This document shows, piece after piece, positions 4,540-60,746 of a DNA stretch of 64,000 bases (position 1 is the stretch's first letter; each line of letters begins with the position of its first letter). Position numbers and translations under genes: made by a program. The stretch lies in the NCBI GenBank assembly GCA_021525805.1, contig GCA_021525805.1_3940.1. One strand, written 5' to 3'. The DNA is from a phage. Below the pieces are notes generated by a model. The model saw only the letters and a program-made list of their open reading frames with translations, ran no database searches and had not been told where the DNA came from.

Positions 4540-5892
4540 ATGTGGAATCCAATTGTTAATGTAGATATTACATTGAACACCGCAGGAACTACAAGAGAAG
4601 GTTTTGGGCTGCCACTATTTTTAGCTTCAACAGATAATTTTGAAGAAAGGGTGCGTGGCTACACTTCCTTAACTGAAGTTGCTGAAGATTTCGATGAAAG
4701 GTCTGCTGCATATAAGGCTGCTAAACAACTTTGGAGTCAGACTCCTAAAGTAACTCAGCTTTATATTGGGAGACGCGCTATGCAGTACACTGTATCAATT
4801 CCTGATGAGGTTACTGAGAGCACAGATTATTCTTTAACTGTAGCTGTGAGCGGTGGAGTTTCTCAACCATTCCAGTATACAGCACAGACATCAGATACCG
4901 CTGAGAAAGTGCTACAGCAGTTCAAAACACAGATTGAAGCTGACCCAACAATTAAAGATAAGGTCACTGTGAATGTAACTGGTAGTGCTGGTTCTGCCAC
5001 AATGATTATTACCAAAGCTGGTGATAATGACTTTGTGAAAGTAACAACCACAGCACAGACTGTATATATTGCAAGTACAACTGCCGATACAGCATCAACT
5101 GCTCTGGCAGCCATTGAAGCTTATTCTACTGACTGGTATTTCATTGCAGCAGAAGATAGGACTCAACAGTTTGTCTTAGCAATGGCTTCTGAGATTCAGG
5201 CTCGCAAGAAAATCTTCTTTACAGCTAACTCCGATGTAACAGCCCTGCAAGGTACAGAATTAGCCAGTGCAAATGATGTTCCAGCACAGCTTGCTAAGAA
5301 TATGTACACTCGTACAATTTGCTTGTGGCATCACACAGCAGCAGAAGATTACCCAGAGATGGCATACATTGCTTATGGTGCTCCATATGATGCAGGTTCA
5401 ATTGCTTGGGGTAATGCTCAGCTAACTGGTGTAGCAGCTTCTCTACAACCATCTAATAAGAGACCTCTGACAAGTATCCAGAAGTCAGCTTTAGATGCAC
5501 GTCACTGTAACTTTATTGACCTTGATGGTGGTGTTCCAGTGGTTCGTAGAGGGATTACTTCTGGTGGGGAATGGATTGATATCGTCCGTGGTGTTGACTG
5601 GTTAGAATCAGACCTGAAAACTTCTCTGAGAGACTTGCTAATTAACCAGAAGGGTGGTAAGATTACTTATGATGATACTGGTATTACCCGTATTCGTCAA
5701 GTCATTGAAACCTCTCTGCAAAGAGCAGTCAACAGAAACTTCCTGTCATCTTACACAGTTAATGTTCCTAAAGCCTCTCAAGTTGCTTTAGCAGACAAGA
5801 AAGCTCGTATCCTGAAAGACGTTACCTTCGCAGGTATCTTAGCAGGTGCTATCTTGGATGTTGACTTGAAAGGTACAGTGGCTTACGAATAA
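4540..5892 (+). CDS. Tail sheath protein (candidate)
   Basis: 450 aa ORF directly upstream of a ~150 aa tube-sized ORF, chaperone pair and tape measure; call by synteny. Confidence 0.5.
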   Translation: MWNPIVNVDITLNTAGTTREGFGLPLFLASTDNFEERVRGYTSLTEVAEDFDERSAAYKAAKQLWSQTPKVTQLYIGRRAMQYTVSIPDEVTESTDYSLTVAVSGGVSQPFQYTAQTSDTAEKVLQQFKTQIEADPTIKDKVTVNVTGSAGSATMIITKAGDNDFVKVTTTAQTVYIASTTADTASTALAAIEAYSTDWYFIAAEDRTQQFVLAMASEIQARKKIFFTANSDVTALQGTELASANDVPAQLAKNMYTRTICLWHHTAAEDYPEMAYIAYGAPYDAGSIAWGNAQLTGVAASLQPSNKRPLTSIQKSALDARHCNFIDLDGGVPVVRRGITSGGEWIDIVRGVDWLESDLKTSLRDLLINQKGGKITYDDTGITRIRQVIETSLQRAVNRNFLSSYTVNVPKASQVALADKKARILKDVTFAGILAGAILDVDLKGTVAYE

Positions 5893-18889: not shown

Positions 18890-19084
18890 ATGCCTACAAT
18901 CCTAGCAATTCTTCTAAAAAATCTAGGTAGCTTCTTCTGGAAACTCATTTTATCCCTTCTAAGTGAATACATGATTGAGAAAGTGTTCTTTAGGCTTGCA
19001 AGATACCTTGCGAGTAAAACAGACACACCTATTGATGATGAGTTCGTAGATAACTTAGAAAAAGCTTTTAAGGGGGAGAAATAA
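18890..19084 (+). CDS. Small membrane protein (holin-like or fibre-associated; uncertain)
   Basis: 64 aa with hydrophobic N-terminus; sits after fibre genes. Confidence 0.3.
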   Translation: MPTILAILLKNLGSFFWKLILSLLSEYMIEKVFFRLARYLASKTDTPIDDEFVDNLEKAFKGEK

Positions 19085-19456
19085 ATGAAGTGGCTAGAGG
19101 AAGCTTTTAAAAATAATATTGGTGCAATTGTAGTTGGTATTTTTAGTGTTATTGGGATGTATACCACGATGCAAGTTTCAAGTGGTAAACAAGAAGTGTC
19201 TGTCACAACAAAGTTACAGCAGCTAGATAATTATTCCAAAAGTAACTATTCAGCTATTCGTGATTTACAGTCTGACATGAGGCTGCTTCAGCTAGGGATG
19301 GAGAACCAGAAAGTCCAGTTAGAGAATGTTAAGGGTGAAAACGCAAAACTTACCAAAACTCTTGATAAATTCTCTGACAGTGTGAATAATCTGGCTCAAT
19401 CAGTATCAGCCCTCCAAGCTATTACTGAGAAGAACACAAAGAATACTGAAAAATAA
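19085..19456 (+). CDS. Membrane-anchored coiled-coil protein
   Basis: N-terminal TM segment (IGAIVVGIFSVIGMY) then Q/L-rich coiled coil; followed by bidirectional terminator. Confidence 0.3.
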   Translation: MKWLEEAFKNNIGAIVVGIFSVIGMYTTMQVSSGKQEVSVTTKLQQLDNYSKSNYSAIRDLQSDMRLLQLGMENQKVQLENVKGENAKLTKTLDKFSDSVNNLAQSVSALQAITEKNTKNTEK

Positions 19457-26281: not shown

Positions 26282-26583
26282 TTTCTCTTACCGCCAATCT
26301 CTACGTCAATAACTTGAACATCACCAGCAACATCAAACTTATGAATGATGCTTTCCACAGTGTAAGTCCAACCATCAATGCGAACCAGCTCACCTTCTCG
26401 TGGAACTATTGGATTACGTTGAGCTACGGTTGTAGTGGAGTGAACAACATCATAACAGTAGATATAGTTTACTAGGACTTCCATCGTGAAAACCTCACTC
26501 AATAACCGTAGTATGTGATTCCCCATTTTTGCCATAGCTGTAAGATGTTGTTGTTTGAGAGTTTGGGCATCTGACAACAACAA
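26278..26583 (-). CDS. Hypothetical protein
   Basis: 101 aa coupled ORF. Confidence 0.35.
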   Translation of the reverse strand: MLLSDAQTLKQQHLTAMAKMGNHILRLLSEVFTMEVLVNYIYCYDVVHSTTTVAQRNPIVPREGELVRIDGWTYTVESIIHKFDVAGDVQVIDVEIGGKRK

Positions 26584-26752
26584 TATCTCTGCTTATAGCA
26601 TCACCATGTAACTTGTATACTCTGCAATCTTGCATCTCTGGTGGGAGGCTGTAAGAAGCATTTTTATCTTCATAAGAAGGGTTGCAGCCAGATAGAAAAA
26701 TTACTCCAAGTGCAACCATTGCTTTCACACAACTCTTAACCTTATTGTTCAC
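26495..26752 (-). CDS. Putative lipoprotein
   Basis: Signal sequence with lipobox-like FLSGC; overlaps neighbouring ORF in another frame. Confidence 0.3.
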   Translation of the reverse strand: MNNKVKSCVKAMVALGVIFLSGCNPSYEDKNASYSLPPEMQDCRVYKLHGDAISRDIVVVRCPNSQTTTSYSYGKNGESHTTVIE

Positions 26753-56709: not shown

Positions 56710-57258
56710 ATGAAGAAGTTGATTCTAGGTTTGTGCTTAATGTTTACAGCACACTTATCTTATGCAGTTGACTGCCCAGAGCTATCAATTAGTCAAAAAG
56801 TAAACATGTTAAAAGCTTACCAGTATGGTGAGAATAATATGGGTAAAGGTTGGGGTATCACTCTAGCTGCTATAGCCTTACAAGAGTCAGAGTTAGGTCT
56901 GAAGGTAGAGAATAAAAAGACACATGATTATGGTATTTTCCAGAATCACTTGAAGACTGTTGTAAAGCGTAACAAAATCAGTCCTAATGTGGCTAAAAAG
57001 AAACTCTTAAAAGACTTTGACTATGCTGCAAAGGAAACGCACAAAGAGCTTGAGTTTTGGACGAAGGTACATGGTCAACCAAAGTCAAAGAAGACTTTAC
57101 AAAAAGTTTTAGCATCATATAATGCTGGGTATTCGTACAAAATCCCTAAAGCTAAGAAATACTCTCAAGATGTCTATAACAATATGAAAGTTATCGCTCA
57201 ATGTGAATTTGCAACAAACATTTCTAAGGTAAATCATGAAAAAATTAAGAAAGTCTGA
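56710..57258 (+). CDS. Secreted lytic transglycosylase-like protein (endolysin candidate)
   Basis: Signal peptide MKKLILGLCLMFTAHLSYA; SLT-like ALQESELG ... YGIFQ ... SYNAG. Confidence 0.45.
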   Translation: MKKLILGLCLMFTAHLSYAVDCPELSISQKVNMLKAYQYGENNMGKGWGITLAAIALQESELGLKVENKKTHDYGIFQNHLKTVVKRNKISPNVAKKKLLKDFDYAAKETHKELEFWTKVHGQPKSKKTLQKVLASYNAGYSYKIPKAKKYSQDVYNNMKVIAQCEFATNISKVNHEKIKKV

Positions 57259-57941: not shown

Positions 57942-58406
57942 ATGAACAATATCATTACGGTAGCACTGGACGTTACGGCAAACAAATCTGAAGTAGTTCG
58001 TAACATTATCAAAAGCAACTTTGAGGGTAAAATCTTCCGTGCTGTCAATGTAAAAGCAGATGGCAGCATTCGTGAATATCGTGCATTGTTGAACGTCAAA
58101 AAGCACGTAAAAGGTGCTGGTTCAACGACTGCACACAAAGAAAACCTGATGACTATCTATGATATGGGTATGGCTTCAGAGTTAGGTGCTGAAGGTATCG
58201 TTAAAGAAGGTGCTCCGTATCGCTCTTTCAATCTGGAAACTGCTCTTATGCTTTCCTTTACAAGTGGTTCTAAAACAACTACTTATCTCTTTACTGATGC
58301 TGCAACGGTATCTGCTATCAAGGATAGCACCGTCAAAGCTGGGGTAGCTGCTGCTGCAAAAGCTTCTTCGATGGCTGCAAATGTCCTTGCTAAAGTCCTC
58401 GGTTAA
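57942..58406 (+). CDS. Hypothetical protein
   Basis: 154 aa ORF followed by terminator. Confidence 0.35.
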   Translation: MNNIITVALDVTANKSEVVRNIIKSNFEGKIFRAVNVKADGSIREYRALLNVKKHVKGAGSTTAHKENLMTIYDMGMASELGAEGIVKEGAPYRSFNLETALMLSFTSGSKTTTYLFTDAATVSAIKDSTVKAGVAAAAKASSMAANVLAKVLG

Positions 58407-58417
58407 GGTTAAGATAC

Positions 58418-58440
58418 AGGCTCCTTCGGGAGCCTTTTTC
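58418..58440 (+). terminator. Rho-independent terminator (UUCG tetraloop)
   Basis: ggctcc-ttcg-ggagcc followed by TTTTT. Confidence 0.6.
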
Positions 58441-58458
58441 ATTTCAGGAGATTGTTAA

Positions 58459-58806
58459 ATGACATTTAAAGAGTTCTGCCAAGCTACTTTCATAATTGTT
58501 TTCTTAGTTGGGGCAGGTGTCTGGGGAGGATACTCTTATAGAGACTATCAAGTTGCTGAAGCTGAGCTAAACAATGAGAAACTAATCAGTGTGGCTAAAG
58601 ATGCTTATCAGGAAGGTTTAGCCACACTGAGCACCAATTACAAAAATGATTTGAAAGATGTGCTTGCTAAGAATAAGCATACAAAAGAGGTATTAACATA
58701 TGAAAAAACTAAGCCAGAATTTTATAATGTTTGTGTTACTGATAACTATGTCAGGGTGTTCAACGAACAAAGTGAACAGTACATTCAAAAACTCCCAAGT
58801 AAGTGA
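58459..58806 (+). CDS. Inner-membrane spanin (Rz-like) candidate
   Basis: N-terminal TM helix then coiled-coil periplasmic domain; lipoprotein ORF embedded in its 3' end. Confidence 0.4.
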   Translation: MTFKEFCQATFIIVFLVGAGVWGGYSYRDYQVAEAELNNEKLISVAKDAYQEGLATLSTNYKNDLKDVLAKNKHTKEVLTYEKTKPEFYNVCVTDNYVRVFNEQSEQYIQKLPSK

Positions 58807-58969
58807 GGGTGACAAGTACACTCAAGAAGAATCAAGATTCACTGTCAAAGGTAATACTGGCAGTGATGTGGCAGCAGCCCTTGAGTTTTATCGTGATGGT
58901 TTTTACCAGTGCACTATAAAAGCTAATAACCTTATTGATATGATTTTATTAGGGAATAAGCAGCAATGA
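58700..58969 (+). CDS. Outer-membrane lipoprotein spanin (Rz1-like) candidate
   Basis: Signal peptide with lipobox-like ITMSGC; starts within 58459-58806 in a different frame. Confidence 0.4.
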   Translation: MKKLSQNFIMFVLLITMSGCSTNKVNSTFKNSQVSEGDKYTQEESRFTVKGNTGSDVAAALEFYRDGFYQCTIKANNLIDMILLGNKQQ

Positions 58970-59960: not shown

Positions 59961-60746
59961 ATGGGTATTGTAAAAATCATCAATGGTGATATCTTTGCTG
60001 CATTTGATAAAGGTAAGTTTGACATCATTGGTCACGGTTGTAATTGTATGAATTTAATGGGTGCAGGTATCGCTAACAAGATTTCTAAACTTTACCCAAA
60101 AGCATATGATACCGATACAGAAGTTTACCTATATGCAGGTGGCATAGGTCACAAACCCTGTGAAAATTTACTGGGTAATTTCTCTGTAGCACGTTTAGAA
60201 CAAGGCCGTATAGCTAACCTTTACACTCAGCTTAAGACTGGTAAAGATGCCCGATACAGTGCTTTAGAGTCATCTTTGAAGCAGCTTAACAGATACTGTG
60301 AAGTCAATCAGTTGAAGAAAGTCGGGTTACCTATGATTGGTGCAGGTATTGGTGGGCTAGACCCTCAAGCCGTCACAGTTATCATTAATCAGGTGATGAA
60401 GAGTGTAGATGTTTATCTGTATGTCTACGAAGGAGAGATGTACCACAAGTTATGCTCAGGTTGGAATAACTACTGTGAACCAGAATACTTTGCAGGTGTA
60501 GTTGTGTTCACAGATAATGCAGTTACCCTCTTCAGACGAAGAAAAGGTAAGATACATCAGAGTAACCCTCCGGTTGAAAAGATGTCTCTAAGTAACGCTC
60601 TAGTTACCCACCTGTCGAAGAGCAATCACAGGATTGCAGTAACATTTGGTAGTGATGCAGACACTTATATCTATGCAAGAACTGATGAGGATATCGAGAC
60701 AGTTTTCTCTTCTCCAGAAGTTACCTTCTTAGACGCAAAGAACTAA
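59961..60746 (+). CDS. Macro-domain-like protein with C-terminal extension (candidate)
   Basis: N-terminal GDIFAAF...DIIGHGCNCMNLMGAGIANKI and later GLPMIGAGIGGLDP, resembling macro-domain ADP-ribose-binding glycine-rich loops. Confidence 0.4.
   Translation: MGIVKIINGDIFAAFDKGKFDIIGHGCNCMNLMGAGIANKISKLYPKAYDTDTEVYLYAGGIGHKPCENLLGNFSVARLEQGRIANLYTQLKTGKDARYSALESSLKQLNRYCEVNQLKKVGLPMIGAGIGGLDPQAVTVIINQVMKSVDVYLYVYEGEMYHKLCSGWNNYCEPEYFAGVVVFTDNAVTLFRRRKGKIHQSNPPVEKMSLSNALVTHLSKSNHRIAVTFGSDADTYIYARTDEDIETVFSSPEVTFLDAKN

Follow-up and report, generated by a model that had tools for sequence, protein, structure and literature searches.

A probable two-component spanin with overlapped genes in a Felix O1-like myophage

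The window, by which we mean the whole 64-kb stretch of phage DNA that was analyzed, carries two open reading frames (ORFs) at 58459-58969 which raise three questions: whether they encode a spanin, whether that spanin is related to the Rz/Rz1 pair of lambda, and whether a local lysis module is built around it. The original prediction, made from the sequence, had answered all three with yes and had described an Rz/Rz1-like pair with an embedded, out-of-frame lipoprotein gene. We conclude that the Felix O1-like myophage from which the window is derived very probably has its two-component spanin genes at 58459-58969, in an overlapped architecture. The reading as a spanin pair was supported by matches to protein families, the annotation of near-identical phages, the corresponding SpaninDB entry, dual coding in the overlap and the lysis cassette context of distant relatives. 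Since the pair has been catalogued and annotated in this phage genus, the finding is already known, and the pair is real but ordinary.

Gene layout, translation signals and sorting signals

Both predicted ORFs were present in the ORF listing at exactly the expected positions on the plus strand. The i-spanin gene (58459-58806) starts with ATG and encodes a protein of 115 aa. The o-spanin gene (58700-58969) also starts with ATG, lies in the +1 frame with respect to the i-spanin gene and encodes a precursor of 89 aa. The dual-coding overlap on the plus strand comprises 107 nt (58700-58806), in which i-spanin residues 81 to 115 correspond to o-spanin residues 1 to 36. Because the last 163 nt of the o-spanin ORF, up to position 58969, lie downstream of the i-spanin stop at 58806, the pair is overlapped (o-spanin start inside the i-spanin ORF, end beyond it) and not embedded, an arrangement in which the o-spanin ORF lies wholly within the i-spanin ORF. 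In this respect, the original prediction had to be corrected.

Each gene is preceded by its own Shine-Dalgarno (SD) sequence on the plus strand. That of the i-spanin gene, AGGAG (58446-58450), was read from the sequence with an 8-nt spacer, and the same i-spanin SD is recorded for Felix01 in SpaninDB (PMC6139136). That of the o-spanin gene, AAGAGG (58685-58690; 9-nt spacer), is located inside the i-spanin coding sequence. Overlapping genes on the same strand and an own SD for the o-spanin correspond to the gene layout of a two-component spanin.

According to the hydropathy analysis, the 115-aa product has one N-terminal transmembrane (TM) helix at residues ~6-26 (nt ~58474-58536, plus strand), followed by a periplasmic domain of 88 residues. 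Residues 6-24, a hydrophobic stretch, reached a Kyte-Doolittle mean of 1.75 in a 19-residue window and 2.9 in an 11-residue window (KD11). The flank on the N side of the TM segment has a charge of 0, or of +1 if the free amino terminus is counted, and that on the C side has a charge of -3. This distribution favors an N-in/C-out orientation and thus type II topology. A small protein with a single N-terminal TM domain (TMD) and N-in/C-out orientation, as judged from hydropathy and flank charge, is what is expected of a spanin, and in line with this the predicted type II membrane protein was supported. The periplasmic coiled coil that had been proposed for the same protein was not. Pepcoil gave 0 coiled-coil regions for the Felix O1 i-spanin, which is 97% identical to that of the window (Kongari 2018 Table S3, PMC6139136). 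The region is nevertheless predicted to be mostly helical, with 58 of the 88 periplasmic residues of the Felix01 i-spanin assigned to helices by Jpred (Kongari 2018 supplement, PMC6139136). A single-sequence AlphaFold model of the i-spanin was of low confidence (pLDDT 51) and suggested three short helices followed by short strands.

The 89-aa protein has the N-terminus MKKLSQNFIMFVLLITMSG|CST, with cleavage before the Cys. The signal peptide, located by the lipoprotein pattern, comprises residues 1-19 (58700-58756, plus strand), and the lipobox M-S-G-C (58748-58759, plus strand) ends with the lipid-attachment residue Cys20 (58757-58759). This start fits both the PROSITE PS51257-type pattern for lipoproteins and the CPT lipobox in its relaxed form. 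It does not match the strict lipobox [LVI][ASTVI][GAS]C, from which it departs solely by the Met at position -3. The lipobox region reads T-M-S-G-C in the window and I-M-S-G-C in most relatives. Since the residue at +2 after the Cys is Ser and not Asp, sorting to the outer membrane is expected. By its sequence patterns (signal peptide, lipobox, Cys, no Asp at +2), the o-spanin thus carries the signal of an outer membrane lipoprotein. The predicted lipoprotein start at 58700, in another frame and with a signal peptide and a lipobox-like MSGC, was thereby upheld, and Cys20 proved to be invariant.

Both products have conserved C-terminal parts with one periplasmic cysteine each. The i-spanin carries the conserved motif EK-x4-F-x3-C-x4-Y-x4-N, in which Cys92 is encoded at 58732-58734 on the plus strand, and residues E82, K83, F88, C92, Y97 and N102 were invariant among nine diverged homologues. 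In the o-spanin, C20, G54, C71, N76 and L78 were invariant among nine diverged homologues, and Cys71 is encoded at 58910-58912 on the plus strand. A check of the periplasmic cysteines, which had been proposed together with the prediction, therefore gave one per subunit, each conserved throughout. As read from the sequence, each protein has the at least one periplasmic cysteine that homotypic disulfides would need.

Phage identity, family membership and genomic context

The spanin region was ~96% identical to Felixounavirus genomes such as those of the Salmonella phages SLAM_phiST56, BPS15Q2 and Mushroom and of the Escherichia phage mio, and the remainder of the window matched the structural and replication modules of this genus. 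Judged by sequence, the window is from a Felixounavirus. In these phages, the genes have been seen before. In BPS15Q2, mio and Mijalis, the counterpart of the i-spanin bears the annotation i-spanin or Rz-like spanin; the same two coding sequences are annotated as a spanin pair in BPS15Q2, Mijalis and SUSP1, with the o-spanin at the same start in BPS15Q2 and Mijalis; and many GenBank/RefSeq records label the pair as i-spanin/o-spanin. The genome announcements of Mushroom and Moogle already describe Felix O1-type spanins. In SpaninDB, Felix01 is listed as 'ovl', with the i-spanin at 5330-5678, the o-spanin at 5571-5841, an overlap of 107 nt and products of 115 and 89 aa (Kongari 2018 Table S4, PMC6139136), and Felix01, FO1a and UAB_phi87 are grouped there under the overlapped architecture (Kongari 2018, PMC6139136).

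Profile comparisons placed both proteins in the Felix01/phiEco32-type family (phrog_1152; phrog_4180/2425), with full-length matches and conserved motifs, the motifs scored being EK..F...C....Y....N for the i-spanin and G, Y..C and N.L for the o-spanin. The i-spanin matched phrog_1152, 'Rz-like spanin', with an E value of 8.9e-42 over residues 1-115. The o-spanin matched phrog_4180 with an E value of 1.9e-49 over residues 1-88; its matches to phrog_2425 and phrog_456, 'Rz-like spanin', were weaker. The label of phrog_4180 in PHROGs v4 is 'unknown function'. Scanned against NCBIfam, the spanins, the holin candidates and the SLT-like protein discussed below gave sub-threshold noise only.

By tblastn, 403 phage records contained a member of the i-spanin family and 324 a member of the o-spanin family. 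Six distant relatives with 25-36% identity were examined: those of the Erwinia phage M7, the Salmonella phages SeKF_13 and Solent, the Yersinia phage P778, the Hafnia phage SarahDanielle and the podophage phiEco32. All six have kept the +1 overlapped layout, the lipid-attachment Cys and the conserved C-terminal motifs, along with one conserved periplasmic Cys per subunit, at the positions of Cys92 in the i-spanin and Cys71 in the o-spanin. Furthermore, two of them carry the pair next to lysis genes. In Solent, it closes a holin-endolysin-holin cassette, and in Yersinia phage P778, a Felix-type endolysin (lysozyme) that is 57% identical to that of BPS15Q2 is encoded immediately upstream. Such neighbors speak for a role of the spanin family in lysis.

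In the window itself, the pair is not part of a lysis cassette; it adjoins the rIIA/rIIB and polynucleotide kinase genes and lies behind a terminator-like hairpin. The annotated holin gene (19085-19456, plus strand; 123 aa with one N-terminal TMD), whose product is 100% identical to the BPS15Q2_49 'holin', directly follows the tail fibre gene and is separated from the spanin genes by ~39 kb. For Mushroom, a holin of class III has been described. PHROGs assigns no function to the holin-annotated protein encoded at 19085-19456. A Felix-type endolysin (Phage_lysozyme) was not found in the window by tblastn and is encoded elsewhere in the genome. Hence, neither holin nor endolysin is associated with the pair here: the former is ~39 kb away, and the latter lies outside the window. 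This agrees with the description of Felix O1-like phages as having no lysis cassette and scattered lysis genes (PMC4319497, PMC3185647). The gene directly upstream of the pair (57942-58406; 154 aa) was considered as an endolysin candidate and rejected, its product having no similarity to the endolysin of Yersinia phage P778 or BPS15Q2. At the equivalent position, Yersinia phage P778 has a same-sized 'endolysin', which is the Felix-type lysozyme.

The original prediction had also pointed to a protein with a signal peptide and an SLT-like domain at 56710. Indeed, motifs, profile and model all indicated that the 56710-57258 product, which has a Sec-type signal peptide, adopts the GH23/SLT fold. 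Residues E59-S60, Q78, Y137-N138-G140 and Y151 were invariant in 15 homologues, so that the sequence and the model together suggest a GH23/SLT enzyme with the catalytic Glu-Ser, the Q and Y-N-x-G motifs and a goose lysozyme-like fold. The Pfam SLT score of the protein (18.8) was below the gathering threshold (21.3), and its distant homologues carry PF01464. A phmmer search with the protein against the PDB gave no matches. Relatives were found only by profile, and the family profile matched EtgA, a type III secretion lytic transglycosylase, at 7e-4. The AlphaFold model of the protein had a pLDDT of 84.8, and its best Foldseek matches were a g-type lysozyme, a GH23 chitinase, EtgA and lytic transglycosylases, with Foldseek probabilities of ~0.8-1.0 and TM scores of ~0.4-0.5. 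In some records, the protein is called 'putative lysin'. The claim that the lysis functions sit in the spanin module and not next to the tail fibres was thus upheld in part: the SLT fold was confirmed, but the annotated holin gene does follow the fibres, and the endolysin is encoded outside the window.

The hairpin upstream of the pair was found by a terminator scan at 58418-58440 (plus strand). It is a GC-rich tetraloop hairpin, AGGCTCC-TTCG-GGAGCCT, followed by TTTTT, and ends 18 nt before the i-spanin ATG, which leaves no space for a promoter. The identical sequence is terminator t5 of Felix O1 (5291..5316; Whichard 2010 Table 2), and the same hairpin is annotated as a terminator in Mijalis. 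At the same position, hairpins with different stems recur in several Ounavirinae genera, represented by the phages of Hafnia, Erwinia and Yersinia, and also in phiEco32, an unrelated podophage; none is present in Solent. Whichard 2010 called transcription across many terminators of Felix O1-like phages unresolved. That the hairpin is a regulatory element which moves together with the spanin module, with the dose or timing of the spanins set by read-through or antitermination, is conceivable but rather unlikely. Its recurrence may only reflect the abundance of terminators in these genomes.

Conservation, alternative explanations and proposed function

A lipoprotein-like N-terminus was present at three loci in the window, compared to ~2 per 64 kb in mononucleotide shuffles. 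With a signature this frequent and two other such ORFs in the window, it could be argued that only the 115-aa membrane protein is real and that the +1 ORF with its lipobox is a chance frame in AT-rich DNA. Several GenBank records that omit the o-spanin or begin at an internal Met, whereby the signal peptide is lost, would fit this argument, as would one paper reporting an i-spanin alone in a related phage. Conservation speaks against it. In a set comprising the window, 29 IMG/VR loci, the Citrobacter phage Mijalis and the Escherichia phage SUSP1, both ORFs were intact and colinear in 32/32 sequences (28 distinct haplotypes), and the o-spanin SD AAAGAGG and the ATG were invariant across all 28 distinct haplotypes. 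The distribution of variable sites over codon positions 1/2/3 was 22/14/59 in the i-spanin-only region and 15/8/46 in the o-spanin-only region, where 46 of 54 third positions varied. In the overlap, the i frame had 9/7/10 and the o frame 7/10/9, so that the third-position excess was gone in both frames (Fisher p = 9e-6 and 5e-8). Sites in the overlap were also less variable overall. This pattern means that two frames are constrained simultaneously. Moreover, at 26-36% identity, a lipoprotein with the invariant Cys20 and Cys71 still occupies the same +1 overlapped position. At the level of sequence, it is this conservation, and not the lipoprotein signature alone, that settles that the pair goes beyond chance, and we regard a chance origin of the second ORF as extremely improbable.

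If both genes are real, they could still encode an envelope pair whose main role is not lysis, e.g., superinfection exclusion or envelope modification, expressed with the rII and early-middle genes. The neighborhood would suit such a role: rIIA/rIIB and polynucleotide kinase genes instead of a holin or endolysin gene, and a secreted SLT-fold protein encoded nearby. In addition, the pair has no detectable homology to the proven spanins of lambda and T4, and the function of the family rests on architecture and context. However, in Solent and Yersinia phage P778, the homologous genes lie among canonical lysis genes or right behind them, and the T4 spanins are equally remote from the holin and endolysin genes and lie next to pseT, so that remote placement is no argument against a spanin role. 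In the 64-kb window, we came across no other spanin candidate, as the other lipoprotein-like ORF lacks both a C-terminal TMD and a partner, whereas the 58459-58969 pair shows every architectural feature of a two-component spanin in the sense of Summer 2007 and Kongari 2018. A main role outside lysis therefore retains a slim probability. Still less credible is the original view of an embedded homologue of lambda Rz/Rz1 in a local lysis module whose endolysin is the 56710 protein. It shares the general logic of the locus, a +1-frame lipoprotein gene starting inside the gene for a type II membrane protein, and it can point to the GH23/SLT fold of the 56710 product with its catalytic Glu-Ser motif and to the 'putative lysin' label. 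With regard to architecture and homology, it is already refuted by the 163 nt of o-spanin past the i-spanin stop and by the outcome of the comparison with Rz/Rz1: no Pfam Rz/Rz1 (Phage_lysis) match to the pair was found at E<=1, and hhalign against lambda gave probabilities of 0.2% (Rz) and 5% (Rz1; signal peptide only). 'Rz/Rz1-like' thus does not hold as a statement of sequence kinship. As to the module, the recognized endolysin is the Phage_lysozyme protein encoded elsewhere, the holin annotation is beside the tail fibres, and its Sec-type signal peptide would allow the 56710 protein to reach the wall without a holin.

We therefore favor a two-component spanin of the Felix O1 type, which may work as follows. 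The 115-aa product would be held in the inner membrane by its one N-terminal helix and would expose its mostly helical, 88-residue C-terminal part to the periplasm. The 89-aa product would be translated in the +1 frame from its own ribosome-binding site and exported. Once lipidated on Cys20, it would be processed by signal peptidase II and, owing to the Ser at +2, would finally be placed in the outer membrane, on the inner leaflet. By analogy with lambda and T4, the periplasmic domains probably bind each other via their conserved C-terminal regions, and each subunit may homodimerize through its single conserved periplasmic cysteine, Cys92 or Cys71, by putative disulfides. The resulting complex would thread the peptidoglycan mesh and, after removal of the wall by the endolysin, would fuse the inner and outer membranes, whereby lysis would be completed.

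In the literature searched, we found no experiment on the Felix O1-type spanin family. In RT-PCR data for Felix O1, ORF 6 peaked at 25 min and fell into the same class as the lysin, ORF 35. Because of the numbering of t5 and gene 6, ORF 6 probably is the i-spanin gene. As spanins, the two proteins provide the third lysis component expected of a phage with a Gram-negative host, and their location illustrates that lysis genes are scattered in Felix O1-like phages, similar to the situation in T4. Beyond that, the significance of the locus is small and lies in correct annotation, considering the omitted o-spanins, the misplaced starts and the unlabeled PHROGs family.

Comparison with known spanin systems

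The closest known system is that of Felix O1 (NC_005282 p014 and the overlapping ORF 5571-5841), which has the same genes, lengths, 107-nt overlap, SD and terminator t5. It differs by point substitutions only, with 3/115 residues changed in the i-spanin. The same spanin genes are also present in Mushroom, Moogle, Mijalis and BPS15Q2. More distant members of the family are gp39/gp38 of phiEco32 (Kuravirus) and the pair of Solent (Sashavirus). They share phrog_1152 with the i-spanin of the window, and their o-spanin family, phrog_2425, is related to phrog_4180. All of them have +1 overlapped genes, with C-terminal motifs and Cys residues that are conserved. Their proteins are 26-30% identical to those of the window, and their o-spanins carry one extra periplasmic Cys. 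In Solent, furthermore, the pair is located within a classical lysis cassette and without the upstream hairpin.

With lambda Rz/Rz1, the pair shares the predicted mechanism, the +1-frame start of a lipoprotein gene inside a membrane protein gene, and periplasmic cysteines for homotypic linkage. However, the lambda genes are embedded while those of the window are overlapped, and there is no detectable sequence homology. The proteins also differ in kind. Two coiled-coil helices are predicted for lambda Rz but none for the i-spanin of the window type. Lambda Rz1 is a 60-aa precursor, and its mature form, of ~40 residues, is proline-rich. The o-spanin of the window, in contrast, is made as an 89-aa precursor and has a mature form of 70 residues without proline.

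T4 PseT.3/PseT.2 resemble the pair in size (117 and 99 aa in the T4 record), in the o-spanin that is predicted to be structured and is not proline-rich, and in genomic setting, since lysis genes are scattered and the spanins are located near the polynucleotide kinase gene in both genomes. They differ by their separated architecture, by their assignment to PHROGs 739 and 812, and by their cysteines: the T4 i-spanin has no periplasmic Cys and the T4 o-spanin has two, while the proteins of the window have one each. BLASTP of the pair against PseT.3/PseT.2 gave an E value of 17 for the i-spanins and of 0.043 for the o-spanins, the latter due to the signal peptide only, and hhalign gave probabilities of 0.2% and 5%. 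We therefore rejected sequence homology to the lambda and T4 spanins alike, as the similarity detected by BLASTP and hhalign was at the signal-peptide level only.

The overlapped class of spanins, of the P2 LysB/LysC type, was reportedly defined by Summer in 2007. P2 LysB/LysC and the pair at 58459-58969 fall into this same architectural class (Kongari 2018, PMC6139136), but the Felix01 and P2 groups belong to different families (Kongari 2018, PMC6139136).

Hairpin upstream of the spanin genes

A terminator-like GC hairpin with a T-run and a UUCG/GNRA-type tetraloop was found at 58418-58440 in the window and at the equivalent position in the phage loci L006, L007 (phiEco32), L008, L009 and L010. 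It lies on the upstream side of the i-spanin gene, 18 to 25 nt from the start, and this position leaves too little space before the spanin SD for a promoter. The podophage phiEco32 and Ounavirinae of Hafnia, Erwinia and Yersinia carry equivalent hairpins with differing stem sequences; upstream of the i-spanin gene of Salmonella phage Solent and of two IMG/VR loci (L034, L035), such a hairpin is absent.

Annotation of the o-spanin gene

The o-spanin gene (58700-58969) is left out entirely in many public records. In others its start is placed at the internal Met17, so that the signal peptide is lost, as in phage mio (L002 3749-3970). In PHROGs v4, "unknown function" is the label of both phrog_4180 and phrog_2425, the o-spanin families, and for vB_Si_DR094 a comparative paper (PMC8300805) reported the i-spanin alone. 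Near-identical Felixounavirus sequence was also observed in records named "Campylobacter phage" (e.g., A126, 43 kb) and in one "Staphylococcus" record. In such a record (match H77, MG065668.1), o-spanin identity was 97.8%. These records are probably mislabelled or contaminated entries.

Other envelope and lysis candidates

A second ORF with a lipoprotein signature (MNNKVKSCVKAMVALGVIFLSG directly before C; 85 aa) is located at 26495-26752 on the minus strand and matches phrog_902, labelled "unknown function" in PHROGs. Since neither a C-terminal TMD nor a partner membrane protein was found for it, we rejected this ORF as a spanin; its product could be a lipoprotein that acts in the envelope or in exclusion.

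Immediately 3' of the tail fibre gene are two small membrane-protein genes (18890-19084 and 19085-19456, both on the plus strand), the latter of which is annotated as encoding the class III holin. PHROGs gives no function for either product (phrog_402, phrog_4038), and in the genus of the window the holin assignment appears to be based on topology alone.

The gene at 56710-57258 (plus strand), flanked by rIIB and a polynucleotide kinase gene, encodes a 182-aa secreted protein with a GH23/SLT fold; its signal peptide is MKKLILGLCLMFTAHLSYA, followed by VD. It belongs to phrog_600 (unknown function in PHROGs), and a profile search revealed EtgA, a lytic transglycosylase of type III secretion, as its nearest solved relative. 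Cys22 and Cys164 tend to co-occur among the homologues, which suggests a periplasmic disulfide.

Macro-domain or phosphatase-type neighbour of the spanin pair

Approximately 1 kb downstream of the spanin genes is a macro-domain or phosphatase-type gene (59961-60746, plus strand; phrog_335), named "O-acetyl-ADP-ribose deacetylase" in some records. In phiEco32, the Appr-1-p processing (macro) gene gp37 (L007 1939-2379) is located directly 3' of the homologous spanin pair. A spanin pair with a macro-type gene may be a module common to the window phage and phiEco32.
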